A stretch of DNA of 64,000 nt from a virus. Numbering within the stretch: position 1 is the stretch's first letter; each line of letters starts with the position of its first letter. The stretch spans positions 1 to 64,000 of IMG/VR virus record IMGVR_UViG_3300036820_000011. One strand, written 5' to 3'. The notes beneath the pieces were generated by a model. It worked only from the letters and a program-made list of their open reading frames with translations, was not told the origin of the DNA and did no database searches. This document shows, in pieces, positions 7,890 to 22,726 of the stretch. The position numbers and the translations under genes were made by a program.

Positions 7890-8785
7890 AAGCACTAGTC
7901 AGCGGTGATCAAGGGTTCTTGGGACGCCATTTCGCCGAGGAGCTGCACCGGCGCGGGTACGACGTGGTCGGCATCGACACCAAGCGCAGCCCGTCCCAGG
8001 ACTGCCGGTCGTGGTTCTCCTCCCCGGCCGGGAAGCGGCACCGGCAGTTCGACCTGGTGGTGCACGCGGCGGCGGTGATCGGCGGCCGGGTGAAGATCGA
8101 CGGTGATCCGCTCGCCACGGCAGCGAACCTGAGCATCGACGCCGAGATGTTCCGCTGGGCCGGGCTGACCAGGCCGGGCCGCGTGATCTACTTCTCCAGC
8201 TCCGCCGTGTACCCGGTTGACTACCAGACCGAGCACGGCGGCAGACTGCTGGCCGAGCATGCCGCCGACCCGGTGGATCACCCGGACGGGGCTGTCCGGT
8301 TCCCGGACCAGGTGTACGGCTGGAGCAAGGTCGTCGGCGAGGTGCTGGCCGACCGGCTCCGCGCCGCCGGAGTGCCGGTCACCGTGGTGCGGCCGTTCTC
8401 CGGCTACGGGGCCGACCAGGACGAGGACTACCCGTTCCCCGCGTTCGTGCGCCGGGCGCGCGAGGGCCAGGACCCGTTCGAGGTCTGGTGCGGGGAGTGC
8501 GTCCGAGATTTCGTCCACGTGGACGACATCGTGGCCCGGACCCTGGCGGTGGCGCAGGACGGCACCACCGCGCCGGTCAACATCTGCACCGGCATGGGGA
8601 CCTCGTTCAACGACCTGGCGGCGCTGGTCTGCCGCCGGGGCGACCGGCTGCGGATCAGGGCGCGGCCCGACATGCCGACCGGCGTCCGCTACCGGGTCGG
8701 CGACCCGGCCCGGCTGCGGCGGCTGACCGGCGACCTGCCGATGATCAGTCTGGAGGAGGGCGTCGCACGGGCGCTGGAGACCTGA
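7883..8785 (+). CDS. NAD-dependent nucleotide-sugar epimerase/dehydratase
   Basis: GDQGFLG Rossmann motif, FSSSAVY, YGWSK (YxxxK), RPFSGYG, RDFVHVDD. Confidence 0.92.
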   Translation: MVKALVSGDQGFLGRHFAEELHRRGYDVVGIDTKRSPSQDCRSWFSSPAGKRHRQFDLVVHAAAVIGGRVKIDGDPLATAANLSIDAEMFRWAGLTRPGRVIYFSSSAVYPVDYQTEHGGRLLAEHAADPVDHPDGAVRFPDQVYGWSKVVGEVLADRLRAAGVPVTVVRPFSGYGADQDEDYPFPAFVRRAREGQDPFEVWCGECVRDFVHVDDIVARTLAVAQDGTTAPVNICTGMGTSFNDLAALVCRRGDRLRIRARPDMPTGVRYRVGDPARLRRLTGDLPMISLEEGVARALET

Positions 8786-8981
8786 TAACGCTTGCGTCAC
8801 GATGCGGAGCCCGTCCGGACGAGAAGATCGTCCCGGCGGGCTTCGATCATGTTACGCCATAAAGAATCTTGAAAAACTTACAAAGCTGCACGTCAGAGCG
8901 TTGCCGGAAGTTTGACAGACCCTTCGGTCTTTGAGATAGTTAAATCAAGCAAGAGAGAACGACAGACCAACAAACGAAGAT
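8784..8981 (+). promoter_or_regulatory. Terminator + strong promoter module, copy 1
   Basis: Hairpin 8806-8844; AT-rich 44-bp core 8861-8904; TTGACA (8912)-N17-GATAGT (8935) with extended TGn. Confidence 0.8.
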
Positions 8982-9390
8982 CTCAGCCCGGTTGGAAGAA
9001 CCGTCGATCAGAAGTCTTGATCCTCCAGATTGTCACCGGCACTACATCCGGACATGGCGTCTGCGACGACCCCGCGAGGGAGAGCAGATGGGCACAGGGG
9101 ATGAGTATTCAAATCAAGACTTCACCGAGCGAAGCGGCTGGTATGTCCCACCGGCGCTCGAAGACGTTGCACCACCGCACAGAGCCGAACGCCTCCCCGG
9201 TCGAACCGGATTGCAGGCACGGTGACAGCACAGAGCCCCGCGTCACGATCACGGTGTACGCAGCGAAGCAACGCGGGGCACGGGACGCGCGCACCAGATG
9301 ACCGGATCAAGGGGTAGCAGTGGCTGTGATCCGTCGGTCCCCCGGCATGGTGCGCGCGTCCTCCTGCACGACCACTGACGAGAGGAACCG
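8947..9390 (+). ncRNA. Putative long structured leader RNA
   Basis: About 450 nt without a credible CDS; 11-bp helix GAAGTCTTGAT (9011)/ATCAAGACTTC (9113) encloses nested hairpins, including CCC-GCGA-GGG. Confidence 0.5.
9235..9282 (+). repeat. Repeated structured motif A, copy 1
   Basis: GCCCCGCG..hairpin..GTACGCAGCGAAGCAA-CGCGGGGC-ACG; copies at 12027 and 13367. Confidence 0.8.
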
Positions 9391-9393
9391 ACC

Positions 9394-9594
9394 ATGTCGA
9401 ACTTCCAGTACCAGCCCAGCACGATCAGCCAGCACGCTGCGTACATCGGGCGGGAGCTGGCCGCAGGGCGCTTCGTCCAGACGACTTTCGACCCGGCCGA
9501 CGGAACGATCACCGGGATCGTCGGCGTCGAGCCGCGCAGCGCCTTCGCCGACCAGGTGACCGCAGCGGCCGAGCGCCGGGCCAGTACCCGATGA
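9394..9594 (+). CDS. Hypothetical early protein
   Basis: RBS GAGAGGA and start-associated motif. Confidence 0.7.
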   Translation: MSNFQYQPSTISQHAAYIGRELAAGRFVQTTFDPADGTITGIVGVEPRSAFADQVTAAAERRASTR

Positions 9595-9797
9595 GCAGCG
9601 GCGTCGCCTGTCCTGACAAGGACCACCGGCCTTCGTGGCGGGTGGTCCAGTACCACTGCAACCAATCGGTCTTCAACGGCGGTCGTATCACCCGGTCGCC
9701 GTACTCGCTCCTGCGCTGCGGCACCTGCGACGCGGCCTGGCGCACGAAGGCCGCGTACGTGGAAGAGATCGTCAACCGAAAGGGAATCTGGTCATGA
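9591..9797 (+). CDS. Small Zn-ribbon-like protein
   Basis: C..H, CGTC; ATGA overlap. Confidence 0.65.
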   Translation: MSSGVACPDKDHRPSWRVVQYHCNQSVFNGGRITRSPYSLLRCGTCDAAWRTKAAYVEEIVNRKGIWS

Positions 9798-9988
9798 CCA
9801 TGAGCCGCAAGTACTACCGCGAGGCAGCCGAGAACCTGAACCGGCAGCTGCGCAACTCCACACCGGTCACGATCGACGCCAAGGCACAGACCATCAGGGA
9901 GACGGCAGACGACCTCGCGGGCATGTTCGCCCGGGACAACAGCGCCTTCTCCCGCAGCCAGTTCATGGACGCGGTGTACAACAAGTGA
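9794..9988 (+). CDS. Conserved small phage protein
   Basis: MSRKYY...FARDNSAFSRSQF pattern; ATGA overlap. Confidence 0.65.
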   Translation: MTMSRKYYREAAENLNRQLRNSTPVTIDAKAQTIRETADDLAGMFARDNSAFSRSQFMDAVYNK

Positions 9989-10098
9989 TCCACCCGCCTC
10001 CGAACACGCCGCGAGGGTGCCCGATCGAACCGGGCCGGAGGCACGCAGCCCGCTCCCGTCCGGGAGGCGGGTCCGCCGCACGACCGAGAGGGTACGCC

Positions 10099-11355
10099 AT
10101 GGCCATCGACGTCAACGACCGCTTCGCCGCGAACAAGATCGCTCAGCTGGACAGCGACCGCAACGCCGGAATCCGCGCCGCCGCCTCCGCCGCCGAGCGG
10201 ATCGAGCGCCTGGACGCGATGGTCGCCGAGGGCAGGGCCCGGGTGAGCGGCGACACCTACACCGTCACCGAGGGCTGGGACGCGGGCGAGACGTTCACCG
10301 TCGACCGCAACGCGACCACAGGTGAGCTGATCGAGGTCACCGCGAACACGGGCCTGGACCTGCGGGCCGACGGCAGCACCGCGCTCTACCTCGCGGGCAG
10401 GCCCGCGTGGCACTCGCTCGGCCAGCTGATCCCCGAGGGCACCGCCGACATCGAAGAGGCGTTGCGCCTGTCGGGCAACGACTTCGACGTGGCCAAGGTC
10501 CCCAGTTCGTTCGAGTTCGAGGGCAGTGTCCTCCAGCAGCCCGGCCGCTTCACCACGGTCCGCGTGCAGCCGGGCCACCCGCTGCACGGGTCGCCGCTGG
10601 GGTCCGTGGGCGCGGGCTACACCCCGAGCCAGAACCGCGACGCCTTCGGGTTCCTGCAGGAACTGATCGGCGACATGTCCGCTGTCTTCGAGTCCGCCGG
10701 GTCGATGCGCAACGGCGCGAGCGTGTTCGTCTCGCTCCGGCTGCCGCAGACCGTCACGATCGACCCCGAGGGGATCAACGACGAGATCGTGCCCTTCGTG
10801 ATGGTCCGCAACACCCACGACGGCACCGGGTCCTTCCAGGCGATGACCACCCCGTGGCGTCCTGTCTGCAGGAACACCGAGGGCTTCGCCGTGCGCGACG
10901 CCCAGCGGATCTGGAAGATCCGCCACACCGCCGGGATCACCGACCGCGTGAAGGAGGCCCGCCGGGCGCTCGGCATGTCGGTGACCTACTTCGAGGCGTT
11001 CGCAGCCGAGGAGACCGCACTGGCGCAGACGGACATCGACCTGGACGGCTTCCGAGCCCTGCTCGACACCCTGTGGGAGCCCGAGACGGACGAGACGAAG
11101 AAGGCGTCGCTGACGATCGCCGCGAAGCGGACCGAGACGCTGATGGGCATGTTCGGGACCGAGGCCGGAAACCTGGGCCGCACCGCGTACGCGGCCGAGC
11201 GGGCCGTGACCGGCTACCTGGACCACGTCGCGCCCCGCCGTCCCGGCAGGACCATGACGGAGGAGATCGCCCGCGCCTCCGCCCTGCTGCTCGACACCGA
11301 CGGCGAGACCAAGAGCAAGGCGCACCGTCAGTTGATGACGCTGACCAACCGGTAG
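10099..11355 (+). CDS. DUF932 domain protein
   Basis: PAWHSLG, YTPSQN.DAF.FL, FESAGSM.NG..VF, NTHDGTGS, RPVCRNT, IRHT. Confidence 0.88.
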   Translation: MAIDVNDRFAANKIAQLDSDRNAGIRAAASAAERIERLDAMVAEGRARVSGDTYTVTEGWDAGETFTVDRNATTGELIEVTANTGLDLRADGSTALYLAGRPAWHSLGQLIPEGTADIEEALRLSGNDFDVAKVPSSFEFEGSVLQQPGRFTTVRVQPGHPLHGSPLGSVGAGYTPSQNRDAFGFLQELIGDMSAVFESAGSMRNGASVFVSLRLPQTVTIDPEGINDEIVPFVMVRNTHDGTGSFQAMTTPWRPVCRNTEGFAVRDAQRIWKIRHTAGITDRVKEARRALGMSVTYFEAFAAEETALAQTDIDLDGFRALLDTLWEPETDETKKASLTIAAKRTETLMGMFGTEAGNLGRTAYAAERAVTGYLDHVAPRRPGRTMTEEIARASALLLDTDGETKSKAHRQLMTLTNR

Positions 11356-11440
11356 CCGTCTGAGTGCACATGATCGGGTGCGGCCCTGCGGGGCCGTCCC
11401 CGTTCACGGGTGCTCAGCCCGACCACTGACCGAGGAGGGA

Positions 11441-11626
11441 ATGACCGTGTCCGAGATCACGATCACCAACCGGAACACCAAGGAAGAGATCACGCTGCAC
11501 GGCCTGAGCCGGTACGAGGTGCAGGTGCTCGCCGACCTCGTGACCCCGGTCAACGCCGACTGGAAGTACTTCTCAGACGGCGCTGTGCCGCCGACCAACA
11601 AGGCCGTCCGGACACGCGGCAACTGA
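11441..11626 (+). CDS. Hypothetical protein
   Basis: RBS GAGGAGG. Confidence 0.6.
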   Translation: MTVSEITITNRNTKEEITLHGLSRYEVQVLADLVTPVNADWKYFSDGAVPPTNKAVRTRGN

Positions 11627-11686
11627 CCCGCTGTCAGTGTCCTCTGACACCGTGGGACCGACGATCACTCGACCAAGGAGCAGACC

Positions 11687-12019
11687 ATGATCATCACTAG
11701 CTACGGCAGTTGGAACAACTACACCCACTACAACACGTGCCCGGGTGCGGACATCCTCGACGTCATCAACGGCGGCGACTCCGAGTGGCAGCAGCGCATG
11801 GAGGACACCGGCGCGCTGAACGCGATCGAGACCGAGTGGTGCGCCGCCATCCAGGCCGCTCTGCCCGAGGGTGTCACGCTGACCGGGGACGAGTTCATCG
11901 GACCGCACCACGCCGACCCGGCCTACAGCGACGAGATCGCCGAGTTCGATATCAGGGCCGCCATCGAGGACATCGACCTTCAGGCGATCATCGAGCGCCA
12001 CGACGTCGACAACACCTAA
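11687..12019 (+). CDS. Highly acidic hypothetical protein
   Basis: RBS AAGGAG; D/E-rich, no Lys. Confidence 0.75.
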   Translation: MIITSYGSWNNYTHYNTCPGADILDVINGGDSEWQQRMEDTGALNAIETEWCAAIQAALPEGVTLTGDEFIGPHHADPAYSDEIAEFDIRAAIEDIDLQAIIERHDVDNT

Positions 12020-12026
12020 TCGGTCA

Positions 12027-12075
12027 GCCCCTCGCCGTGCACCCCGGCGTACGCAGCGAAGCAGCGCGGGGCACG
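12027..12075 (+). repeat. Repeated structured motif A, copy 2
   Basis: GCCCCTCG-CCG.TGCACCC.CGG-CGTACGCAGCGAAGCAG-CGCGGGGC-ACG. Confidence 0.8.
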
Positions 12076-12107
12076 TACCGACCGACCACTGATCGAGAGG
12101 AACCGCC

Positions 12108-12404
12108 ATGGCCAGTATCCAGCAGCTCACCGCAGCGGCAGCGAAGGCGGGGTTCGTGCGCACCGAGTGCGCCCACCTCGACTCCCCGCACCACCTGGTG
12201 TTCGACTACCCGGAGCCGCTCAGCGAGGACCGTATGCGTCCGCCGTTCTTCCGGGTGCACACCGACACCGCCCGGGTGCCGCACGCGACCTACATCCACG
12301 GGGGCGGCTCCGACGATGACGTGCCCGTCGAGCAGCGCACCACGCTGGTGCACGCGATCACGTGGATGGCGGAGATCGCCAGGCAGTACCCGAAGGAGGG
12401 CTGA
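12108..12404 (+). CDS. Hypothetical protein
   Basis: Start-associated motif and RBS. Confidence 0.7.
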   Translation: MASIQQLTAAAAKAGFVRTECAHLDSPHHLVFDYPEPLSEDRMRPPFFRVHTDTARVPHATYIHGGGSDDDVPVEQRTTLVHAITWMAEIARQYPKEG

Positions 12405-12405
12405 G

Positions 12406-12630
12406 ATGCCCTACTGCGCGGACGACATCGTGATCGCCACGGTGCCCGGGGCGGGCATCCGCCGCGTATGGCTGTGGAAGCCCGCCCGGGGCGGCTGGCT
12501 GGTCAAGGATGTCAACGGCACCCCGTACTGGGTGGACACCGGCGGGATCGAGAGCGTGGCCGCCTACCGGCTGCGCACGGGGTCCGGGCTGCTGCCCGGC
12601 GAGAGGAGCACGCATGCAGACGATCACTGA
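12406..12630 (+). CDS. Hypothetical protein
   Basis: RBS GGAGG; high-GC3 ORF. Confidence 0.55.
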   Translation: MPYCADDIVIATVPGAGIRRVWLWKPARGGWLVKDVNGTPYWVDTGGIESVAAYRLRTGSGLLPGERSTHADDH

Positions 12631-13066
12631 CCAGCTGGTCGCCTCCGGGGCGAAGGGCCTGACCCTGCACTCCCCCTGGGGTGACCTGATCGCACTCAAG
12701 GCCAAGCAGGTCGAGAACCGCAGCTGGCCGACCGACTACCGGGGGCTCGTGCTGATCCACTCCGGACTGCGGCACGACGGCTGGGCCGAGCGGGACGAGC
12801 ACGTCCGCACAGCTCTGCCCGAGGACTACGACCCGGCCGGGAACGCGGGCACGGTCGTCGCGGTGGCCCGGCTCGCCGACTGCCACCGCGACGCCGGGTG
12901 CTGCCGCCCGTGGGGCGAGGCCGGTCTGTGGCACTGGGTGTTCGCCGACGTGCACCGGCTCACCACCCCGATCCCGCAGCGCGGGGCGCAGGGGCTCTGG
13001 AGCGTGCCCGTCTCGCTGCTGCTCGGCGTCGTCACCGGGGTCGAGCGGGCCGCCAGCGGTCGATAA
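12614..13066 (+). CDS. ASCH domain protein
   Basis: GLTLHSPW..LI...K.VENRSWPT.YRG.VLIHSG ... RGAQGLW. Confidence 0.88.
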   Translation: MQTITDQLVASGAKGLTLHSPWGDLIALKAKQVENRSWPTDYRGLVLIHSGLRHDGWAERDEHVRTALPEDYDPAGNAGTVVAVARLADCHRDAGCCRPWGEAGLWHWVFADVHRLTTPIPQRGAQGLWSVPVSLLLGVVTGVERAASGR

Positions 13067-13260
13067 CGCTTCCGTCACAGTCGGGGACCGCCGGAGCGGA
13101 TGTGATCACTCCGGCGGTCTTCGATCTTCTGATCGCCGAAAGAATCTTGAAAAACTTACAAATCTGCACGTCAGAGCGTTGCAGCAAAGTTGACGAGGTC
13201 TCGGTTCTTTGAGATTATTAAATCAGAGCGAAGAACACAGACCAACAACTGAACAAGATC
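13062..13260 (+). promoter_or_regulatory. Terminator + strong promoter module, copy 2
   Basis: Hairpin 13084-13122; core 13139-13182 matches copy 1 at 43/44; TTGACG (13190)-N17-GATTAT (13213). Confidence 0.8.
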
Positions 13261-13445
13261 GCCGGTGATAGGGAACCGGACATCCCAGAGATAAGGCCCC
13301 CGGAAAGGCTAAGGCTGGGAGGGACGGGAGAGTCGGCGAACCCGATAGGCGTCCATGAGTGAACAAGCCCCGCATACGTGATCACGACGTACGCAGCGAA
13401 CGCAACGCGGGGCACGTAATGATCGACACCACTCGCACGGACGAA
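13225..13445 (+). ncRNA. Putative structured leader RNA 2, including motif A copy 3 (13367-13416)
   Basis: Consecutive hairpins CCGGT/ACCGG, TCCCAG/CTGGGA, GGACG/CGTCC; shares CCGG..CCGGACAT and ATGAGTnnnCAA with leader 1. Confidence 0.5.
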
Positions 13446-13456
13446 GGAGTCTTCTG

Positions 13457-13717
13457 ATGACCAAGAACTTTGAACTTGTCACCATAAGTGAGACCCAGGC
13501 CCGTGTTCTCCGGAGTGCCAGTTGGTACAGCTACGTATGGTTCGCCTACAACGTCCGCAGCAGCTCGTACATGACTTTCCACAAGTTGTATGCGCTGGGA
13601 CTTATCGAGAGCCCTTTCGCAGGTTCCGCCTTGACGGCCAAGGGAGCGGCGCTCCGTGATCACCTGGTCAAATTCCCGGCCGCCGGAGGATCGGTCATCC
13701 TCAACTGGGAGGACTGA
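13457..13717 (+). CDS. Hypothetical protein (lower GC, possible winged-helix)
   Basis: RBS AAGGAG; KLYALGLIE...LTAKG pattern. Confidence 0.6.
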   Translation: MTKNFELVTISETQARVLRSASWYSYVWFAYNVRSSSYMTFHKLYALGLIESPFAGSALTAKGAALRDHLVKFPAAGGSVILNWED

Positions 13718-13807
13718 CTAGCACTGACCCACCAGCCCGGCCGGAGTTCACCGCTCCGACCGGGCACTGTGACCGCAACGCACGACCACCCGAGTGAGGA
13801 ATACACC

Positions 13808-14059
13808 ATGTCGAACGTCACCGCATCCCAGGCCCGCCTGCTCACCGCCCTCGCATCGTCCACCGCCACCGACCCGATTCTTGTTCAGTGCTCCTCCCTC
13901 CGCAGTGCTACACGCATCTACGGGACCAAGGCGACGATGACGACTGCCGTGTCCCTCTGCAACCGGGGCCTGGTCCACTGGGACCACTCGACCAACCTGT
14001 TCAACGGCCAGCGCCTGACGCTGACCGACGCCGGGCGCAAGGTCGCTGAGAACCTCTGA
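13808..14059 (+). CDS. Hypothetical winged-helix-like protein
   Basis: TASQARLL...SLCNRGLV...LTDAGRK. Confidence 0.65.
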   Translation: MSNVTASQARLLTALASSTATDPILVQCSSLRSATRIYGTKATMTTAVSLCNRGLVHWDHSTNLFNGQRLTLTDAGRKVAENL

Positions 14060-14091
14060 TCCGCACGACCGCCGCCCGAGCGAGGAGCACG

Positions 14092-14439
14092 ATGACCACC
14101 GACCGGAAGACCGCGCACTGCCTCCGCTGCCGTGGACTGCTGACCGACCCCGCGTCGGTCGCCCGGGGCACCGGCCGCACCTGCGCCCGCATCATCCGTC
14201 AGCAGGAGACCGCGCTGCGCATCGCTGCCGCCTTCACGACCGGGCAGTGTGCAAGCGCCCGGGAACTGATCGAGGACAGCGCGATCGTGCACATGCGGGC
14301 CGACCTCTTCCAGAGCGTCTCCTCCGACGGCACCTCGTTCTACCTGACCGCCGCCCGGGGCAACTGCAACTGCCCGGCCGGACTCAAGTCCCACCTCTGC
14401 TACCACCTGCTGAGCGCCCGCCTGCTGCTCGCCGCTTAG
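14092..14439 (+). CDS. DUF6011-like zinc finger + SWIM zinc finger protein
   Basis: CLRCRGLLTDP.S..RG.G..C and CNCPAG....CYH. Confidence 0.8.
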   Translation: MTTDRKTAHCLRCRGLLTDPASVARGTGRTCARIIRQQETALRIAAAFTTGQCASARELIEDSAIVHMRADLFQSVSSDGTSFYLTAARGNCNCPAGLKSHLCYHLLSARLLLAA

Positions 14440-14447
14440 GAGTACCG

Positions 14448-14627
14448 ATGATGCCGATCCGCACCGGGCAGGTAGAGGCCGAACGCGCCCACCTGCTGGA
14501 CATGCGCCTGCGCTGGCAGGCCGACGAGCACGACCAGGCCGGGCAGAAGTGCCTGGCACTGTCCTTGCGTGACCGGGCGGACGCCGCCTGGGGACGCTAC
14601 CTGAAGATCGGGAGGTATCCGGCATGA
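14448..14627 (+). CDS. Hypothetical protein
   Basis: RBS AGGAG. Confidence 0.55.
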   Translation: MMPIRTGQVEAERAHLLDMRLRWQADEHDQAGQKCLALSLRDRADAAWGRYLKIGRYPA

Positions 14628-14812
14628 ACTATCTGCCCATCGCCTGTGACGAATGCGGGAAGCCGCTCCGGGCCGATCTCGACACTCGCGTCCAGTGCTC
14701 CGAAGGACACTCGGTTCGGATTGAGGATCTGCGTGCGGAGTACACCGCATTGATCAGGAACGGTGAGTGGGTGACCACCTCTTATTCTCTCGATCCCGCC
14801 CTGTACGACTGA
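14624..14812 (+). CDS. Small Zn-ribbon protein
   Basis: CDECG...C..GH; ATGA overlap. Confidence 0.55.
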   Translation: MNYLPIACDECGKPLRADLDTRVQCSEGHSVRIEDLRAEYTALIRNGEWVTTSYSLDPALYD

Positions 14813-14831
14813 CACTCGAAAGGAATTGATC

Positions 14832-15029
14832 ATGAACAAGCTGGAGAACGAGGCCACGATGATCGGCAAGTCCCGTGGCTGGGACCACGCCAACTACACC
14901 GCCGCCTACGGGGGCGACCCGCACGCCGCGCCCGAGGTGCCCGCACGATACGCCCCGGTGCGGACCTACTTCACCGCCGCCTATGCGGAAGGTGTCCAGC
15001 AGTTCCTGGACGACGACCACGACGACTGA
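14832..15029 (+). CDS. Hypothetical protein
   Basis: RBS AAAGGA. Confidence 0.6.
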   Translation: MNKLENEATMIGKSRGWDHANYTAAYGGDPHAAPEVPARYAPVRTYFTAAYAEGVQQFLDDDHDD

Positions 15030-15163
15030 TCCACCGCACAGCCGGACCGGCCCCGACGCGTGGCGAAGGGGCACCTGGAGAGACGGCATCACACGGCACG
15101 CCGTCGAGCGGGGTCCGAATCCTCGCCGGTTCACGCACGACCACCGACCCGAAGGAGCAGCCA

Positions 15164-15418
15164 ATGATCACCAAAGCACAGGCGGAGACCGTCGACATGT
15201 TCCACCAGGGCACCTGCTCGGTCACCAAGGGACCCCGGGGCGGCACCACGGCCAACGTCGTCCGTTGGCGTCGCAACGGGTCGACCCAGGCATGGAAGAC
15301 CCGTCCGAAGGACTTCCGCATCCCCGTCAAGTACGGCATGCGCAGCTACGGCGATATCAACCAGAACAACGCCGTCGACTTCCACACCGAGGCCGACTGC
15401 CCGGCCCACCTGATCTGA
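15164..15418 (+). CDS. Conserved hypothetical phage protein
   Basis: WRRNG....WKTRP..FRIPVKYG pattern; RBS AAGGAG. Confidence 0.7.
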   Translation: MITKAQAETVDMFHQGTCSVTKGPRGGTTANVVRWRRNGSTQAWKTRPKDFRIPVKYGMRSYGDINQNNAVDFHTEADCPAHLI

Positions 15419-15441
15419 TCACCGACTAGAAGGAGAGCCCA

Positions 15442-16374
15442 GTGACCAACTCGGTCTGCAGTACCAGGCACGTCGTCATGTGGTCCGGCGGTATCACGTC
15501 TTGGGCCACCGCCCGCATCGTGATCGACCGACACGGCCGCGAGAACACCACGCTGCTGTTCGCTGACACCAACTATGAGGACCCGGACCTGCACCGCTGG
15601 AACGCGGATGCGGTGGTCAGCCTCGGCATGGATCTGGTGCGTGTCGCTGACGCGCAGGAGCGCAATCCGTGGGACGTGTTCCGCGACAAGAAGTACATCG
15701 GTAACACCCGCATCGCTCCCTGTTCGCACCTGCTCAAGCAGGTTCCGTGCCGCGAGTGGCTAGCCGAGAACTGCGACCCGGCAAACACCATCGTCTACGT
15801 CGGTATCGACTGGGATGAGACGCACCGGATTCCGGCGATCGCTGCAGGCTACGCGCACACCATTAAGGGCTGCGCGAGCCGCAAGCACTGTCTAGATCTC
15901 TTCGGTCCCGGGGGTCGCAGGCAGGGTCCGGGTTGCCGGAACTTGCTGCCGCTCGCCTGGACTTCGGTCGCGCCGCTGACGGAGCCGCCGTTTCAGGACA
16001 AGGACTTCTGGATTGCGGAGGCCGAGCGCGCTGGCCTCCGTCCCCCGCGTCTGTACGGCCTCGGGTTTCCGCACAACAACTGCGGCGGGGCATGCATCAA
16101 GGCAGGTCAGGCCCAGTGGAAGCGCGTCCTCGAAGTGTTCCCTGAGCGGTACGCCGATGCCGAGGCATCCGAAGAGGCGATGCGCGCGGACCTTGGCAAG
16201 GACGTGGCATTTCTGCGGGACCGACGCGGCGGGGAGACGAAGCCGTTGCCACTGAAGCTGCTCCGTACCCGGCTTGAGGCCGATGCGGAGGCCATGCCGG
16301 GCCTGTTCGACGCTGATGACTGGGGTGGCTGCGGCTGCTTCACCGAGACCGATGAGATGCCCGAAATAACATGA
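15442..16374 (+). CDS. PAPS-reductase-like / PP-loop (adenine nucleotide alpha hydrolase) protein
   Basis: MWSGGITS PP-loop, FADT..ED.D, CSHLLK, GFPHNNCGGACIKAG, C-terminal GGCGCF. Confidence 0.8.
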   Translation: MTNSVCSTRHVVMWSGGITSWATARIVIDRHGRENTTLLFADTNYEDPDLHRWNADAVVSLGMDLVRVADAQERNPWDVFRDKKYIGNTRIAPCSHLLKQVPCREWLAENCDPANTIVYVGIDWDETHRIPAIAAGYAHTIKGCASRKHCLDLFGPGGRRQGPGCRNLLPLAWTSVAPLTEPPFQDKDFWIAEAERAGLRPPRLYGLGFPHNNCGGACIKAGQAQWKRVLEVFPERYADAEASEEAMRADLGKDVAFLRDRRGGETKPLPLKLLRTRLEADAEAMPGLFDADDWGGCGCFTETDEMPEIT

Positions 16375-16474
16375 CCAGTGATCACCGACAGCACGACCCC
16401 GACCACCAGGGAGAGCACCATGAAGACGATCAACCTGACCGTGAACCAGAAGTTCCGGAGGAGGGAGAGCAGCC

Positions 16475-16780
16475 GTGGATGACATCGTGCGCGAGGCGAG
16501 CGCAGAGGTCCGTATCAATTTGGACCGCAGCGGGCCTGTCCGGAAGATCGAGGACCCGTTCGGTGGTCAGCGCATCGTCTATGGGCTGCGCATCAGGTAC
16601 GTCCGGGGCAACTGGCGCAACTCAACCGGAAAGCAGGTGGACAGGGCCGACGTCACCGCCGAGTGCCGAAGTGATGCCTTCGCGGTTCTCGGCGACTTCC
16701 CGCAATGGCTCGCCGACCTGGTGGAACAGCACCGCCCCGTCGCCCTGCTCGGCTCCGTGCCGAAGCCTGAGGAGCGCTGA
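16475..16780 (+). CDS. Hypothetical protein
   Basis: ORF with RBS, in operon. Confidence 0.55.
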   Translation: MDDIVREASAEVRINLDRSGPVRKIEDPFGGQRIVYGLRIRYVRGNWRNSTGKQVDRADVTAECRSDAFAVLGDFPQWLADLVEQHRPVALLGSVPKPEER

Positions 16781-16782
16781 CA

Positions 16783-17286
16783 ATGGCCTACCAGGACGCG
16801 TCCGCTGCTCACGACGGGCCGTGGACGCCGGAGGAGGAAGAGTTGCTCGCTGCCAGCGTCCCGCAGGCACAGAGTGCGCGGGTGGGTGATCTCCAGGCGC
16901 TGCACGAGGCGTACCGGCCGACGTCACTGGCCGGGTACACCCGGGGCGACCAGCTCCGGTTCGAGGCGATGGACCGGGAGGTGAAGCGCCGGGACGGCCT
17001 GTTCGCCGCACTCATGGAGATCCTGCCGACCTATACCCGGGGCAGCGGGGCGTTCGTGCCGCTGCGCGACCAGGGCCGGGCCATGGGACCGGTCGCCGAC
17101 TCAGCCAGTGAACGGAGGCTCCGCCGGATGCGGGACGACCTGCCCGCACTCAGGGCTGAATACGAGATGGTCATGGAAGCGTCCAGGACCTGCAACCTGA
17201 CCCGGGAGACCCGGACCCGGGTGTTCAACCACCTCCACGCACTCCGGAACATGATCCGCATCTGTGACGCAGGGAGGCCGTTCTGA
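16783..17286 (+). CDS. Hypothetical protein
   Basis: RBS GAGGAG; operon packing. Confidence 0.65.
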   Translation: MAYQDASAAHDGPWTPEEEELLAASVPQAQSARVGDLQALHEAYRPTSLAGYTRGDQLRFEAMDREVKRRDGLFAALMEILPTYTRGSGAFVPLRDQGRAMGPVADSASERRLRRMRDDLPALRAEYEMVMEASRTCNLTRETRTRVFNHLHALRNMIRICDAGRPF

Positions 17287-17609
17287 TGGCCGGAACACCG
17301 CTGCGCCTGTGCGGCGGCTGCAACCGCAACTTCCTGACCTGGGCAGCGAACCGGCCCGGCACGGACATGTACCTGTGTCCGGCGTGCACGGCGAAGCTGC
17401 CGCAGTGGGACCCGCAGCCATGGGCACCCCGCGAGATCGGCCGCCGTCTCGTCAGTGACGAGTGCTCACTGACCACCGACAAGCGCCGCCACCGGGTGAT
17501 CGCCCGGGACGGGGACGCGGTCACCGTGGCACGGTACCTGTACCCCGGGCTCGGTACGCCGTTCACCGTCCGTCTGTCCGCTACCGTGCCCGTCGTCTTC
17601 GGGCAGTGA
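17286..17609 (+). CDS. Zn-finger protein
   Basis: CGGC...CPAC; TGATG overlap. Confidence 0.6.
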   Translation: MAGTPLRLCGGCNRNFLTWAANRPGTDMYLCPACTAKLPQWDPQPWAPREIGRRLVSDECSLTTDKRRHRVIARDGDAVTVARYLYPGLGTPFTVRLSATVPVVFGQ

Positions 17610-17736
17610 GGGGTGACCATGACCACCAACACGGTCTTCCTGATCGCCGCCGCCGCGTGCTTCGCGGTCGGCGTCGTCCTCTGGGCCTGGGGGACGCTGC
17701 GATGACCCGTGAGCTGACCCGGAGGGGTGAGAGCTG

Positions 17737-17949
17737 ATGCTGTCGAACACCAACCGGGACCGCAGGGACGAGGCGAACCCCGATCTGGCGTGCACCGCCT
17801 GTCGGGGCATCCTGCGCTGGTACGGCCACGGCGGTGTCGGCTATCTGCACATCCATGTGAGTGGTCCGTCCCGGGGGAAGTTCTTCGGGACGGACCACCC
17901 GGTCCCTGAGAACCAACGGCACAATCCGAGAAAGGACCACCGGTCATGA
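17737..17949 (+). CDS. Hypothetical Cys/His protein
   Basis: CTAC...H...H. Confidence 0.5.
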   Translation: MLSNTNRDRRDEANPDLACTACRGILRWYGHGGVGYLHIHVSGPSRGKFFGTDHPVPENQRHNPRKDHRS

Positions 17950-18176
17950 GCGTCCCGAAGCGCCGCAGGGACTACGCGAGCAACGCCCGCAAGCGCCCGG
18001 CCAAGCAGTCCGGGTGCACCTGGTGCGGGGCGGACACCGACCACGTGTCGATGTACTGCTCCGACGCCTGCCTCCAGGCCGACATGGAGGGGATTGAGGA
18101 CCGCCCGCCGGTCACCGTCCTCGCCTTCAACGCGGCCGGGTGCTCGGACGAGTACCTGGCCCGGAAGTGGAGCTGA
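17946..18176 (+). CDS. Zn-ribbon protein
   Basis: CTWCG....YCSDAC. Confidence 0.6.
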   Translation: MSVPKRRRDYASNARKRPAKQSGCTWCGADTDHVSMYCSDACLQADMEGIEDRPPVTVLAFNAAGCSDEYLARKWS

Positions 18177-18343
18177 CCATCGAGCACGCGGGCTCCTGCG
18201 GACCGTCCCGTGGGGGCTTCCGCGTGTGCTACTGCACCGGGCCCTGCTGCCGGAGAGAGGTGCACGGACTGCGCGTGTGCGTCTGCCCCGGCTGCCGGGC
18301 CACCCCGTCCTGTGCGGGCCACCGACAACGAGAGGACCACTGA
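18167..18343 (+). CDS. Cys-rich small protein
   Basis: 9 Cys in 58 aa. Confidence 0.45.
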   Translation: MELTIEHAGSCGPSRGGFRVCYCTGPCCRREVHGLRVCVCPGCRATPSCAGHRQREDH

Positions 18344-18345
18344 TC

Positions 18346-18564
18346 ATGGACGTCACCGATCTGGAGATCAAGCGCCGCTACCGCAGCGTCCGGGAGCCGG
18401 ACAGGCTGGTCGAGGTGACCCGCATCTGGGACAAGGGAGCCGGGACCGAAGACGTCGGTGTCGCCTACGACATCGTCTCCGACCGCAAGGGTGCCTACCG
18501 GCCGGGGTCCTACTTCAGTGTCCTGCGCATCGGCCTGTTCCTGGAGCTGTACCGGCCCGCCTGA
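18346..18564 (+). CDS. Hypothetical protein, paralog A
   Basis: RYRSV..VTR..YDIV.D...Y.PG..SVL...F.ELYRPA shared with the next gene. Confidence 0.75.
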   Translation: MDVTDLEIKRRYRSVREPDRLVEVTRIWDKGAGTEDVGVAYDIVSDRKGAYRPGSYFSVLRIGLFLELYRPA

Positions 18565-18585
18565 CCCAACGAGAGGACAACTGGT

Positions 18586-18795
18586 ATGAATCACGACGAG
18601 GTAGCCGTTCGGCAGCGGTACCGGTCGGTCATAGACCGGGCTCATCTGGTGAAAGTGACCCGGGTGTACATCCGGGGCGGACGCCTGAACGTTGAGTACG
18701 ACATCGTTGCCGACTCCGAGAACAGGTATGCACCCGGCACCCACGGCAGCGTACTCAGCATGACCGATTTCGCCGAGCTGTACCGACCCGCCTGA
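18586..18795 (+). CDS. Hypothetical protein, paralog B
   Basis: Tandem paralog of 18346..18564. Confidence 0.75.
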   Translation: MNHDEVAVRQRYRSVIDRAHLVKVTRVYIRGGRLNVEYDIVADSENRYAPGTHGSVLSMTDFAELYRPA

Positions 18796-18930
18796 GCGAC
18801 GGCAGCCACCGCCGCAACCCGGCAGCGGCCCACCCCGCTGCCGGGCACCCGCAGCCTCCCCGGGATGCCGCCTGCCCGGGAAGGCTGCCGCCACGTCCAC
18901 CGACCGAACCGACCACCGAAGGGAACCGCC

Positions 18931-19137
18931 ATGGCCGCCACCGTGCGCCAGGAACTGGAGCAGCACCTGATCAACTGCGGCAACTGCCTCGGAGACATCG
19001 ACGCCGGAGGCAACATCGTCCCGGTCAGCCTGTGCAGGACCGGGCGTCGGCTGCACTTCGCCTACGCCTGGGACCTGGACGTCCAGGACGCCGTCCTGTC
19101 CGCCATGGAACGCGACCTGGCCGGGGGCACCGCATGA
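18931..19137 (+). CDS. Hypothetical protein
   Basis: Start-associated motif; H...CGNC...C..G pattern. Confidence 0.6.
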   Translation: MAATVRQELEQHLINCGNCLGDIDAGGNIVPVSLCRTGRRLHFAYAWDLDVQDAVLSAMERDLAGGTA

Positions 19138-19433
19138 AGATCCTGATCAACATTGAGGTGCTGCTGCCGGACGACGAGGACAGCCTGGAGTTCTGGGCCG
19201 AGTTCGCCGACCGCCCGGTCCCCCGCGTGGGGGACGCCGTCCAGTTCGACCTCGCCCATGACTTCGTGGTCGAGCGCGTCCAGTACGTGTTTCCGGCGGA
19301 AGGCGCGGCGGACGCCGGACCCGAAGTCTGGCTCTACTGCGTCCAGGGCGAGGTCGAGTCCGGCATGGGCTGCACCGTCGCCACCTACCGCGAATACCTG
19401 GCCAGATTCGCTGCTGTCAGCTGGGAGCAGTGA
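19134..19433 (+). CDS. Hypothetical protein
   Basis: VPRVGD motif; ATGA overlap. Confidence 0.6.
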   Translation: MKILINIEVLLPDDEDSLEFWAEFADRPVPRVGDAVQFDLAHDFVVERVQYVFPAEGAADAGPEVWLYCVQGEVESGMGCTVATYREYLARFAAVSWEQ

Positions 19434-19434
19434 C

Positions 19435-19671
19435 ATGACCGTCTACTCGATCCTGATGGGCCTGAACGGCATGTGGGGCGCGTACCTGGCCGGGAAGGCG
19501 AAGCCGCGCGGCTGGGCGATGCTCTTTCTCGGCCAGGTGCTCTGGCTCGGTTACGAGGTGATGGGCTGGGCCACGCTGAAGTGGCTGATCCCCAGCACGC
19601 TCGGCTACCTGGCTGTCTACATCGTCAATTACCGGCGGCTGCGCCGGTCCCGAGCAGAAGAGGACACCTGA
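19435..19671 (+). CDS. Small PnuC-like membrane protein
   Basis: G.YLAG..K..GW....GQVLW..Y, about 3 TMs. Confidence 0.6.
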   Translation: MTVYSILMGLNGMWGAYLAGKAKPRGWAMLFLGQVLWLGYEVMGWATLKWLIPSTLGYLAVYIVNYRRLRRSRAEEDT

Positions 19672-19673
19672 CC

Positions 19674-19871
19674 ATGCCCATCCGCTACAGCCACAAGACC
19701 ACGATCATCCCTGGCCTGCTGGCCATGCACGTCAACAAGGAATCGCACAGCTGGACCTGGGGCAACGCGCTGATCGGGCACCTGACCCTCTCCAGTAACG
19801 GCACCCGGACCTACTCCCACGTCCTGCTCGGCGGGGCCAGCTACCGCAGGACGAGCCGGAGGCAGCCGTGA
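19674..19871 (+). CDS. DUF4236-like protein
   Basis: MPIRYSHK..IIPG...VNK...SWT.G....T.SS.G.RT......GGASYR. Confidence 0.6.
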   Translation: MPIRYSHKTTIIPGLLAMHVNKESHSWTWGNALIGHLTLSSNGTRTYSHVLLGGASYRRTSRRQP

Positions 19872-19999
19872 GCCACTACGCATACGCCTACGCCTACGTC
19901 GAGAACTGCTGAGCGCAGCACGGTGGGAGCCGTTTCACGTGAAACGGCTCCCGGCCACGGGTGCTCAGCCCGCACGACCAACGACCGAGAGGAACCGCC

Positions 20000-20239
20000 A
20001 TGTCCGACACTTACGCCATCCGCACCGATCGCCTCCGCCCGGGGGACGTCATCGTGGAGCGGGAGCACACGTTCACCCGCCGTACCGAGGTCGTCATCCT
20101 TCCGGCCCCGGTCACGATCAACTACGGCCCGCTGACCGTGGACGTCTTCGAGGTCAGCGGATTCGACAACGCCCACGGCACGGACCGCAAGGTCCGGTTC
20201 GTCGCTCCCGGGTCGCGGCTGTGGTCCGTCGCCCGGTGA
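20000..20239 (+). CDS. Hypothetical protein
   Basis: Start-associated motif; LRPGDVI. Confidence 0.65.
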   Translation: MSDTYAIRTDRLRPGDVIVEREHTFTRRTEVVILPAPVTINYGPLTVDVFEVSGFDNAHGTDRKVRFVAPGSRLWSVAR

Positions 20240-20574
20240 CCGGGCTCCCGCTGTCCGCCATGGAGCTGTTCATCCTCCAGCGCATGGCGCTGGGGGACAC
20301 CTACACCGAATCGGGCAGGCGGTGGGGGACGACCGGGAGGAGTGCGGGATTCGCCGGGTACCGGGCCATCCACAAGCTCGGTGCCCGGAACATCGTGCAC
20401 GCCGCAGTCATCGCCCTGACCACCGGTCTCATCCACCCTGAGGAGTGCGGGACGGTCCGGACCTACTACTGGCACAAGGCGCACGGCGAGAAGCCGTGCA
20501 CCGCCTGCAAGGCCGCGCGCGGGGACCACGACCGGCCACTCGCCTACTACCGCCGAAAGGACCAGCAGTCATGA
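20236..20574 (+). CDS. LuxR-type HTH regulator with C-terminal Cys/His zinc motif
   Basis: LSAMEL.IL..MA.G.T..E....IHKLGARN..HA..IA...GLI; CGT...Y..H...GEKPC.AC. Confidence 0.75.
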   Translation: MTGLPLSAMELFILQRMALGDTYTESGRRWGTTGRSAGFAGYRAIHKLGARNIVHAAVIALTTGLIHPEECGTVRTYYWHKAHGEKPCTACKAARGDHDRPLAYYRRKDQQS

Positions 20575-20756
20575 CACGCAAGCCGAAGGACATGCCCGAC
20601 CCGGTCACCGATCCCGAGGCGTTCGACGCCTGGGCCACGGAGCTGGCGAAGGAGACAGCGAAGTCGGCCCACAAGAGCCGCGTCGTGAACAACTCCGGGA
20701 TCATCAACACCGGAACAATGATCAACGTCCAGAACGGCGGAGGTGACCAGCGGTGA
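20571..20756 (+). CDS. Hypothetical protein
   Basis: RBS AAAGGA; ATGA overlap. Confidence 0.55.
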   Translation: MTRKPKDMPDPVTDPEAFDAWATELAKETAKSAHKSRVVNNSGIINTGTMINVQNGGGDQR

Positions 20757-20959
20757 GCTGCAAGCGCTGTCCGCACGGGTACGAGACCCTGGTCCGCCTG
20801 CCCTACCACGGGGCCCGCCGGGACAACGGCCCGGCCGCCGACGCCATCGCCGAGATGACGGGCGACGGCGCGCACGTCCACCACAACATGGACACCGACA
20901 ACTTCGACGTCGTCCGGCCCCTGAGCGACCCCGGTCTCCGGCTGCGGGCGCACCCGTGA
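20753..20959 (+). CDS. Hypothetical protein
   Basis: GTGA overlap. Confidence 0.5.
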   Translation: MSCKRCPHGYETLVRLPYHGARRDNGPAADAIAEMTGDGAHVHHNMDTDNFDVVRPLSDPGLRLRAHP

Positions 20960-21204
20960 GCAGGCCGGTCTGGACCCATCGCGTCCTCCTGGCCTATGAG
21001 CCGGGAGCCAGCCCTGTGCATCTGGCCAGGCAGCTGCCCGGCACGCGGTGGATGGTCACCGCCTGCGCCGTCACCGCCTCGCGGATCAGTTGGCACGACT
21101 GGATCAGCGACGACACATCCGAGCCCGCCACCTACCGGGACTGCCTCGCCGTGCAGGCATCCCTGCAGAACGGCCGGGTCCGGGAGAACACACGCCGGAA
21201 CTGA
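20956..21204 (+). CDS. Hypothetical protein
   Basis: GTGA overlap. Confidence 0.5.
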   Translation: MSRPVWTHRVLLAYEPGASPVHLARQLPGTRWMVTACAVTASRISWHDWISDDTSEPATYRDCLAVQASLQNGRVRENTRRN

Positions 21205-21231
21205 CCACCGACGAACAGAGAGGAAACGACC

Positions 21232-21633
21232 GTGCCGCACATCGACTCGTACAGGATCAGGGAGGTAGGTACCCGGGCCGGTCTGCGGATCGGCCCCCAC
21301 TACCGCACCCCGCAGGACGACACGGCGCTGGTCGCCGTGTCCCGCTCGGCCTCCGACACCGGGATATCGTTCCTGCTGGAGCGCGACCAGGTCGCCCCGC
21401 TGGCCGACTTCCTGGCCAGCGGCGGCCAAGTACTCGCCTGGGAGACCGCGTCCCGGACCCTGACCGTCCACCGCTCCGGCGGTTCCTGGCGGTGGTCCGT
21501 CGGGAGCAGCACCGTCGACGGGTCCTCGCGCAGCGTCTGCCTGGACCGGGCGCAGATGCTGGAGCTGGCCGACTGGCTCTCGCACATCGACGCCTTCGGC
21601 TGGGCCGGATGGAAGTCGGGTGTATCCGCATGA
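21232..21633 (+). CDS. Hypothetical protein
   Basis: Start-associated motif GAGAGGAAAC. Confidence 0.65.
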   Translation: MPHIDSYRIREVGTRAGLRIGPHYRTPQDDTALVAVSRSASDTGISFLLERDQVAPLADFLASGGQVLAWETASRTLTVHRSGGSWRWSVGSSTVDGSSRSVCLDRAQMLELADWLSHIDAFGWAGWKSGVSA

Positions 21634-21676
21634 TCCAGGCGTACCCTGCGGCCAGGACCCCGCTGCAGGAGGCGCT

Positions 21677-21970
21677 GTGATCCACGACATCCTGATCTGG
21701 TTCGGTGTCACCAACGGCTCCGGCCACGCCTACCTCGCGTGGTCCGGTGCGGGGTCCGATATAGGGGAGATCACCATCATCGGTGGTCTCGCCATGGTCC
21801 TGCGGAAGCACAACTGCGAAGTGAGCGGCTGCTGGCGGCTCGGCCGCCACGACACGGCAGCAGGGCACACGGTCTGCCGCAGGCACCATCCGGACGGAGC
21901 ACCGACCCACGCGGACATCGTGGCCGCACACCATGCCGCCCTAGCGGCGGCGCGGGACTCCTCACAGTAA
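21677..21970 (+). CDS. Small membrane protein with C/H motif
   Basis: Y.AWSG.GSDIGE...HNC.V.GCWR.G.H......C.RHHP. Confidence 0.65.
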   Translation: MIHDILIWFGVTNGSGHAYLAWSGAGSDIGEITIIGGLAMVLRKHNCEVSGCWRLGRHDTAAGHTVCRRHHPDGAPTHADIVAAHHAALAAARDSSQ

Positions 21971-22070
21971 CCGCATCATCTCGAATCCCCCGGACCCCGG
22001 GATTCCCCGGCACCCCGCGAGCCAGCACACTCGTGCCAGGTGCACCTGTCCACCGGCCCGAGGGGACCAC

Positions 22071-22523
22071 ATGACCATGGCCGCGCACGTCCCGCCCGTC
22101 CGCATCCCGGCCTGGGAGGACTCCGCGCTCTGCCGCAGAGCGACGCCGGAGCAGATCGAGGCCGATTTCTTCCCGCTCATGGAGACCGAACTCCGGGCCC
22201 AGCGCACCTACGACCGCTGGTGCGGCGAGTGCCCGGTGATACATGAATGCCTGACCAGGGCACTGCTGTGCCACTCCGAGGGCATCTATGCCGGGACGAC
22301 CACCGGCACCCGCACCAAGCTGCTGAAGCGCCGCAGCCGGGCCAGGTGCCCGGTGCCGGGATGCCACGCGGCTGTCGACATAGAGATCACTGACCCGAGG
22401 GATGGAGAGATCATGCTGTCCGAGGTATGCCGCTGCTGCGGTGCGTCCTGGAAGGCCGACGGCCCGCCCGGCTCCAAGCCGGTGGCCCTGAGACTGAGCA
22501 CATCCCCTGCGGTGGAGCCGTGA
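22071..22523 (+). CDS. whiB: WhiB-family transcription factor with extra C-terminal Zn ribbon
   Basis: W...ALC....FFP...C.ECPV..EC..AL....GIYAG.T..R; CPVPGC..CRCCG. Confidence 0.85.
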   Translation: MTMAAHVPPVRIPAWEDSALCRRATPEQIEADFFPLMETELRAQRTYDRWCGECPVIHECLTRALLCHSEGIYAGTTTGTRTKLLKRRSRARCPVPGCHAAVDIEITDPRDGEIMLSEVCRCCGASWKADGPPGSKPVALRLSTSPAVEP

Positions 22524-22726
22524 GCGCGGCCTACACCGCCGCCGATCTGGCCGACCACGCCGACCGGCTGACCGAGCTGCTGGAGGCCAAGCGCGAGCAG
22601 TGCATCCAGGCCAGCCCGCAGTACACGATCTGGATCAACTGCCAGATCAAGGCGTTGTCCGAGCGGCTGGCAGAGATCGACCGCCAGTGCCGCGTCCTGC
22701 AGCGGAAGACCCCCCGCGCTGGATAG
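22520..22726 (+). CDS. Hypothetical coiled-coil protein
   Basis: GTGA overlap; last gene of the plus-strand operon. Confidence 0.5.
   Translation: MSAAYTAADLADHADRLTELLEAKREQCIQASPQYTIWINCQIKALSERLAEIDRQCRVLQRKTPRAG

Follow-up and report, generated by a model that had tools for sequence, protein, structure and literature searches.

The DNA analyzed here, referred to as the window, comprises the first 64,000 nt of an 82,852-nt virus record from IMG/VR (IMGVR_UViG_3300036820_000011), a single contig with 68% G+C. Behind the second of its two predicted early promoters, at 13255–13354 on the + strand, lies an RNA fold of about 100 nt, here called the core, whose stems change sequence freely yet stay paired, while its loops are invariant. 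This fold is almost certainly both real and new, and it recurs among related soil phages, all uncultured, on the sense strand of predicted early transcripts. Our reading as a whole is that the core is a genuine new fold, that the leader behind the first promoter (leader 1) is not a member of its family, and that the core has an antitermination-type role in cis; we put the probability of this entire statement at roughly 0.4. An earlier note, made from the sequence alone, had placed a novel structured phage RNA with diverging stems in leader 1. Such an RNA does exist, but it sits in the leader behind the second promoter (leader 2, at 13255–13354). The large terminase encoded in the window shares at most 44% identity with GenBank phage terminases, and its top match is that of Streptomyces phage mu1/6; on the basis of this comparison we class the genome as that of an uncultured, actinophage-type virus.

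The leaders are defined by two sigma70-type promoter-like sites on the + strand, where 0.5 would be expected from shuffles of this region:
8912–8940, + strand: early promoter P1 (TTGACA, 17-nt spacer, GATAGT, TG before the −10 box; 10 of 12 consensus matches)
13190–13218, + strand: early promoter P2 (TTGACG, 17-nt spacer, GATTAT, TG before the −10 box; 9 of 12 consensus matches)

Each promoter is embedded in a repeated cassette of about 120 nt (8826–8947 and 13104–13225, 78% identical), a 21-mer of which had no match in IMG/VR. With predicted starts near 8947 and near 13225, leader 1 would extend over 447 nt to a start codon at 9394 and leader 2 over 232 nt to a start codon at 13457.

The core and the motif that follows it in leader 2 are composed as follows:
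13255–13354, + strand: core RNA fold, about 100 nt, five helices in three tandem domains
13262–13266 / 13275–13279, + strand: hairpin 1 (first domain)
13283–13288 / 13315–13320, + strand: outer stem of hairpin 2 (second domain), 6 bp
13289–13314, + strand: invariant asymmetric internal loop and inner hairpin with a 4-bp stem (13295–13298 / 13307–13310)
13322–13326 / 13350–13354, + strand: helix 3 (third domain), enclosing hairpin 3 (13333–13336 / 13342–13345)
13366–13416, + strand: copy of motif A behind the core, ending 43 nt before the start codon of gene 13457–13717

Relatives were collected in several ways: G001 and G002 from IMG/VR by a motif-A pattern, G003 by the DUF932 protein, and two further phage contigs (G004 and G005) together with four metagenome contigs by a pattern for the invariant loop. 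In G001–G003 the middle part of leader 2 is 90–91% identical to that of the window and the surrounding genes are different; the differences within this part fall pairwise in stems. A covariance model, R1, was built from seven core copies and searched over the whole window with filters off; it returned the core at 13255–13354 with 111.5 bits (E 8e-25), and a broader model, R2, searched over 8000–23000, gave 105.3 bits. The 82.9-kb genome contains exactly one copy. In total R1 matched 12 sites on 10 contigs with 52.7–115.3 bits, three of them in G003 and one each in the window, G001, G002, G004, G005, L026, L028, L029 and L032. Three weaker candidates were set aside: an R1 match at 24102–24187 (17.2 bits, E 0.019 on a rough calibration), which is without the invariant loop, lies among long open reading frames (ORFs) and was taken as noise; an R2 match of only 12.2 bits (E 0.3) in G005, which was ignored; and a pattern match on a low-GC contig (L025/L031), for which the model gives none and which was dropped as chance before the covariation count.

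In the model-fitted alignment of the 12 copies, 98.0% of 295 cells are paired, compared with 72.1% in shuffles (reached in 0 of 500), and 20 of the 25 pairs show changes on both sides; when the partners were slid by 1–3 columns as a control, 20–45% were paired. Because a model-fitted alignment leans towards its model, RNAalifold was also applied to 11 copies aligned simply with MAFFT. There it gave 20 pairs, 14 of them with compensatory changes, and recovered hairpin 1, helix 3 and the two stems of hairpin 2. Among the copies, eight different sequences of the outer hairpin-2 stem occur, every one of them paired, and no variation at all was seen in the inner hairpin of 4 bp, the loop that caps it and the internal loop beside it. 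Fourteen cells are G-U, including one pair that is G-U in all 12 copies, and a G-U beside a G-C is always kept at the base of the inner hairpin. This step is reminiscent of the sites of ribosomal protein S15, a likeness that is given no weight here. Since the G-U cells fit only the + strand, they fix the strand of the core. On the opposite (−) strand, 13289–13313 has a weak terminator-like score (5-bp stem, then CTTATCTCT) in the window, L001 and L018, which is probably incidental given the + strand G-U pairs.

From the −10 boxes, which end at 13218 in the window, at 404 in L001 and at 8742, 9847 and 13349 in L018, to the core starts at 13255, 441, and 8775, 9879 and 13382, the distances are 37 nt in the window, 37 nt in G001, and 33, 32 and 33 nt at the three early promoters of G003, all of which are followed by a core. 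In G004 a promoter that was read by eye is about 120 nt away from the core. The G002 core is separated by about 645 nt from its promoter; it follows the first gene, and motif A precedes it. The genes downstream of the core are mutually unrelated between copies, and the core is separated from the start codons by 100–330 nt that hold variable modules. The three G003 promoters themselves (L018 8714–8760, 9819–9865 and 13321–13367) are near-identical, with palindromes that span the spacer, −10 box and start and resemble repressor operators.

No known RNA family accounts for the core, in agreement with the novelty that the earlier note had made dependent on an Rfam scan. Rfam 15 (4227 models) gave no match in the window at gathering thresholds; at E≤5 over 8800–13900 there was no match on the leaders, the two matches elsewhere (12435–12496 on the − strand and 11547–11747) being far below threshold, and the cores of L019 and L021 had none at E≤1. 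Blastn found no match in 50,697 phage records, neither leader 1 nor leader 2 matched a GenBank phage, and leader 2 had no match among 72,556 plasmids (PLSDB). The core pattern was absent from GTDB at one genome per species, and literature searches turned up no account of such an element in actinophages. As far as these searches reach, the core family is new to Rfam and to annotated phage collections.

Further downstream, all six distant relatives carry a T-loop motif, GGTTCRANNCC, 127–285 nt behind the core on the same strand:
T-loop motif sites: L019 716, L021 316, L026 1046, L028 900, L029 7537 and L032 3297 (reverse strand)

The predicted minimum free energy (MFE) fold of L021 and L029 is an acceptor-like 7-bp stem stacked on the T arm, and the L029 element ends in ACCA; in L019 the acceptor/T-arm arrangement was seen by eye only and is not given by the MFE fold. 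The motif of L032 belongs to a real tRNA-Arg(CCT), separate from and downstream of the core. ARAGORN found no genes in the window and made no call on the leaders, cores or minihelices of relatives except for this tRNA-Arg, and a tRNA or tmRNA reading of the window leaders was rejected, ARAGORN finding nothing there. The 5′ acceptor strand of the relatives' minihelices stands only 15–30 nt before the T arm, which also counts against a tRNA/tmRNA reading, and in the window's clade the T-loop motif was not found in leaders.

Leader 1 is a modular, hairpin-rich 5′ untranslated region (UTR) with the following elements:
8947–8981, + strand: A/C-rich, G-poor start with little predicted pairing, conserved with leader 2 (13225–13257) and with the leader starts of relatives
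9011–9123, + strand: 5′ domain, an 11-bp helix enclosing a CCGG hairpin (9036–9051) and a CCC/GGG-capped hairpin (9059–9089)
9191–9218, + strand: hairpin with a GCCT/AGGC base and a CCGG-TCGAA-CCGG top (predicted fold, z −1.14)
9234–9282, + strand: copy of motif A, a GC-rich closing stem and then ACG
9283–9361, + strand: long hairpin with a perfect, GC-rich 14-bp base (9283–9296 / 9348–9361), ending 32 nt before the start codon
9370–9396, + strand: conserved ribosome-binding-site context, GACCACTGAC ... GAGG ... ATG of the first gene (9394–9594)

The helices that had been named for leader 1 are indeed present: a perfect 11-bp helix (9011–9021 / 9113–9123), a CCGG/CCGG hairpin (9036–9039 / 9048–9051) followed by ACAT, and a stem (9059–9064 / 9084–9089) with the cap CCC-GCGA-GGG at 9071–9080. 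The predicted MFE fold of 9005–9130 is exactly this arrangement of one helix and two hairpins. As a whole the leader folds with ordinary stability (z −1.60, 6 of 100 shuffles being as stable; also z −1.14, 32 of 200), and the long hairpin stands out at −49.6 kcal/mol (z −4.45, 0 of 200 shuffles). When leader 1 was shuffled 300 times with its dinucleotides kept, 6 shuffles contained a perfect inverted repeat of at least 11 bp and none contained one of at least 14 bp. The long hairpin is the best-supported structure of this leader, and the 11-bp helix is supported weakly. Hairpins of other sequence that end 26–47 nt before the start codon were found in four further leaders, so that five of the ten examined, leader 1 included, have one; a site of RNA processing or stability is the most likely explanation.

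Two of the remaining elements have counterparts elsewhere. The hairpin at 9191–9218 sits in a 53-nt block (9173–9225) that is 89% identical to a block in a G003 leader, where it is located downstream of that phage's first core copy. Motif A recurs at 13366–13416 and at 12045–12086 (86% and 94% identity between copies; z of the folds −1.99 and −2.33) and also in relatives. Beside the ribosome-binding site, the 10-mer GACCAC(T/C)GAC, allowing up to one mismatch, occurs 19 times in the window against 8.3 ± 2.6 expected. Its + strand sites include 9370, 11421, 12084, 14094, 15139, 17471, 18335 and 21203, and at the three inspected (9370, 11421 and 12084) it directly precedes the ribosome-binding site. 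We take it to resemble sequences that are associated with starts in some mycobacteriophages.

Natural variation in leader 1 could be followed in one close relative, represented by contigs in two soil runs (X2 and X3) of a single study. It covers 8871–9391 with 12 differences, of which 10 are listed. Two of these, 9296 A>G and 9348 T>C, are the two partners of one pair in the long hairpin and compensate each other (A-U to G-C). A change from A-U to G-U results from 9117 A>G within the 11-bp helix and from 9215 A>G within the GCCT/AGGC stem, and 9210 A>G turns a C/A mismatch beside the CCGG stem into a C-G pair. The A/C-rich start has two changes, at 8968 and 8975, and there is none between 8976 and 9111 among those listed. 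Since A-to-G opposite U is neutral only in a + strand RNA, these changes are consistent with a + strand RNA, and they lend modest support, from one relative, to pairing in leader 1. The covariation called for in the earlier note is strong for leader 2, but it can hardly be assessed for leader 1, of which only near-identical relatives were found.

In the same relative the leader continues to 9391 and is then joined to 9792, so that the two small genes behind the leader are absent, which indicates that the leader travels as a unit; the leaders show that 5′ UTR modules are swapped as wholes among these phages, the junctions at the promoter and at the ribosome site staying fixed. The joint at 9391 coincides with the GACCAC(T/C)GAC junction. 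Elsewhere, 18 nt are inserted after 9975, and 446 nt (11610 to 12057) are replaced by 528 other letters. The contig follows P2 only to 13232 and resumes at 13725, so that it may lack the core or have something else in its place. A further promoter-cassette copy runs on at 8947 into a leader that is short and different.

Leader 1 is very probably untranslated, as the earlier note had it. Its only sizeable ORF, 9101–9301 (66 codons), was rejected as a small protein on three grounds: its G+C content at third codon positions (GC3) is 0.77–0.83, compared with at least 0.9 in flanking genes; one of its seven changes in the close relative is synonymous, compared with 15 of 21 listed changes in the neighboring DUF932 gene; and it has no match in Pfam, the large protein databases not having been searched. 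The G003 block homologous to 9173–9225 has a stop in the frame that corresponds to this ORF, as read by eye.

As to function, the core would fold on the nascent early transcript and act in cis on the transcribing RNA polymerase, either alone, as HK022 put does, or in concert with Nus-type or phage factors and the A/C-rich segment before it, as in nut. Polymerase would then pass Rho and hairpin stops in the 230–450-nt untranslated leaders and in the multi-gene early operons. The rationale is that long untranslated leaders should be Rho-prone. We tentatively favor such a put/nut-like logic, in which the core modifies transcription elongation from the nascent RNA, by analogy, because the core goes with early promoters and not with particular genes, because several copies per genome are possible, and because it lies far from start codons and is preceded by a conserved A/C-rich segment. 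The place of the core just behind early promoters suits the put-like antiterminator suggested in the earlier note, a role that we infer; the decoy RNA suggested alongside it found nothing in its support. A more specific version appears doubtful to us. It would have the core enable a bacterial, here actinobacterial, polymerase to resist termination, alone or with host Nus factors and outside lambdoid phages, and shield the unusually long untranslated early leaders of phages of high-GC soil bacteria from Rho, the tRNA-like minihelices of distant relatives being cleavage signals that detach the polymerase-bound RNA.

The closest parallel is put of phage HK022, described in PMC9378689 as two similar cis RNAs of about 70 nt that act on polymerase and have two stem-loops each, with putL just behind PL and putR about 270 nt from the PR start. 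Compared by described features and not by sequence, the core resembles put in that its copies lie downstream of early promoters (behind all three in G003, with five copies in all at 32–37 nt from the −10 box), in that the distance varies, the G002 core at about 645 nt paralleling putR, and in that its copies are alike and have different genes behind them. In lambdoid phages put acts, without protein factors, on the β′ zinc-binding domain of E. coli polymerase, whereas the core belongs to high-GC soil phages.

Lambda nut and the leaders of rrn antitermination offer another likeness, a conserved linear A/C-rich segment directly before a structured element near the start of the early transcript. 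As nut consists of boxA and a boxB hairpin bound by an N-type protein, the core is likened to it by general layout only. In lambda, nutR lies behind cro, and the G002 core likewise lies behind the first gene. An AUA trinucleotide is critical for binding of M. tuberculosis NusA to boxC RNA, according to PMC2724277. The AUA within the invariant loop of the core could by analogy be a connection to NusA, although a 3-mer is only a lead.

Large structured RNAs near the start of very long operons form a further group for comparison. EAR of the Bacillus eps operon confers read-through and is of this kind; the window leaders have no Rfam match to the eps-associated RNA. In conjugative plasmids, conAn2 of pLS20 is a large 5′ RNA element of a bipartite antitermination system with the partner ConAn1 (PMC8191782). 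Unlike the core, both RNAs have Firmicutes hosts, and conAn needs the protein ConAn1. The early leader can also be the source of a separate RNA: RNase P cuts the CI RNA from the early leader of satellite phage P4. P4 CI and P1 C4 RNA share with the core a structured RNA in an early leader, with tRNA-like signals nearby in the distant relatives; they differ in that the window has no complementary target sites, no Rfam match and no tRNA-like element in its leaders.

Several points weigh against a role in elongation or reduce the force of the evidence. The core, with about 100 nt, five helices and three domains, is larger and more elaborate than put with its about 70 nt, two stem-loops and short triplex. 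P1 and the second promoter of G002 are without a core although they drive similar operons with similar intergenic hairpins, which makes the likeness to put partial and indicates that the fold is no general requirement for early transcription. As no T-run terminator is found on the + strand in 8000–14500, the stops to be overcome, either Rho or hairpins lacking a U-tract, are hypothetical. Transcription starts, processing and read-through are likewise all predictions. The thermodynamic stability of the core is ordinary (z −0.44), from which we conclude that z-scores are uninformative for these leaders. Finally, the main covariation count comes from the model-fitted alignment, and since seven of the 12 copies belong to four close phages, its cells are not independent events.

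Three other functions could be attributed to the core. Invariant loops next to covarying stems are usual for protein recognition sites, and the core, with its invariant loops and always-kept G-U/G-C step beside freely covarying stems, stands behind several early promoters whatever the gene; it could thus be bound by a phage or host protein that controls early mRNA after transcription, through shut-off, stabilization or translation. At 100–330 nt from the start codons, however, direct occlusion of the ribosome-binding site is improbable, and with no candidate protein identified we consider a protein site rather unlikely. The T-loop motif of the six distant relatives, as minihelix or tRNA-Arg, would be a ready RNase P/Z signal, and strong hairpins before the ribosome-binding site in leader 1 and four further leaders of ten might likewise serve a leader that is processed to release the core as a stable, trans-acting small RNA like P4 CI RNA. 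The window and its three closest relatives lack the T-loop motif in their leaders, where ARAGORN finds nothing, and the window contains no + strand site complementary to the invariant loop other than self matches; we judge a trans-acting RNA quite improbable. The covarying stems and invariant junction and loop nucleotides are also aptamer-like, and in the window and G001 the GC-rich hairpin of motif A directly follows the core, as in a riboswitch that senses a small molecule and gates early transcription. We nevertheless give little credence to a riboswitch: there is no closing helix of the type termed P1, no conserved alternative pairing with a downstream terminator or ribosome-binding site, and no conserved expression platform to be seen by eye in 12 downstream sequences, which differ in every lineage; three copies precede unrelated genes in one phage (G003); and in G002 motif A stands before the core and not after it.

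The question for leader 1 is whether it belongs to the family of the core. The two leaders share the promoter cassette, the A/C-rich start and motif A, and the order of landmarks noted earlier does recur in leader 2 (CCGG-loop-CCGGACAT at 13263–13283, an internal-loop hairpin, ATGAGTnnnCAA at 13355–13366 and motif A at 13366–13416). These homologous flanks would suit the idea of 9029–9110 as a structural homolog of the core that has diverged, or a paralog that has decayed, with the same function, as would the fact that the best, though insignificant, R1 match on leader 1 falls exactly at 9029–9110 on the + strand, where a hairpin ending in CCGGACAT is followed in the same order by an internal-loop stem and a small capped hairpin. 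The scores argue otherwise. That match, from a search of leader 1 alone, has 1.5 bits (E 0.71), and the best R2 match has 4.7 bits (E 5.2) in another register; R1 searched over the whole window gave nothing in leader 1 (8947–9396) at E≤10, and R2 searched over 8000–23000 did not pick out leader 1 either. The best local alignment of 8985–9130 with 13255–13365 is the 8-mer CCGGACAT, whose score was reached by 571 of 1000 shuffles, which is chance level. Leader 1 has none of the core's invariant loop nucleotides and no third domain, and no diverged relative of its 5′ domain was found. These figures do not bear out the structural homology proposed between the two leaders. Leader 1 is very likely not a member of the core family; given its flanks it may be a decayed paralog, but for 9029–9110 to be a homolog with the function retained strikes us as highly improbable.

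It is possible, if short of probable, that the 5′ domain of leader 1 (9011–9123) has no function of its own and reflects ordinary GC-rich folding, in which case the promoter-proximal segment, motif A and the long hairpin would be the parts that matter. The stability of 9005–9130 is unremarkable (z −0.92, with 36 of 200 shuffles folding as well), no homolog of the domain was found in G001–G005, the near-identical relative in the soil runs being the only one, and leaders are swapped wholesale between close relatives, with joints or loose ends at 8947, 9391 and 13232. Against this, a perfect 11-bp helix is as rare in shuffles as stated above (6 of 300), the single change inside that helix keeps its pairing as G-U, no listed difference falls in 8976–9111 compared with 10 in the rest of the leader, and the validated core has an ordinary z-score as well.

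To our knowledge, only a few structured RNAs act on polymerase during transcription, put, EAR and conAn2 being the main ones, and none is known for phages of Actinobacteria. The core is a compact fold of 100 nt with strong covariation, its invariant loops are suited to mutagenesis, and the consensus-like promoters before it should be readable by host polymerase. If it does confer read-through, the core would be a second, independent solution to compare with put and a portable part for antitermination or insulation in Streptomyces engineering. If it binds a protein or ligand instead, it would still be a new class of RNA, so far restricted to uncultured soil phages.

Some further features of the window lie outside the leaders. 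Behind the first gene of the P2 operon, a hairpin-bearing intergenic stretch (13726–13780) is 98% identical over 56 nt to G001:23229–23284, where the preceding gene is unrelated; its hairpin is among those ending in GGCAC. The large terminase (51932–53788, − strand) has 618 aa, and other terminases match it only up to about residue 446. Its C-terminal region gave the sub-threshold matches Hint_2 (27.0 bits, cutoff 28.4) and Intein_splicing (25.3 bits, cutoff 35.8), which suggests that the tail is a possible intein or Hint domain. At least eight tandem 45-nt repeats are present at 29775–30269 within a 1604-codon ORF (27486–32300, − strand), and a second GC-rich repeat field extends over 35600–37240 within ORF 35050–37299.

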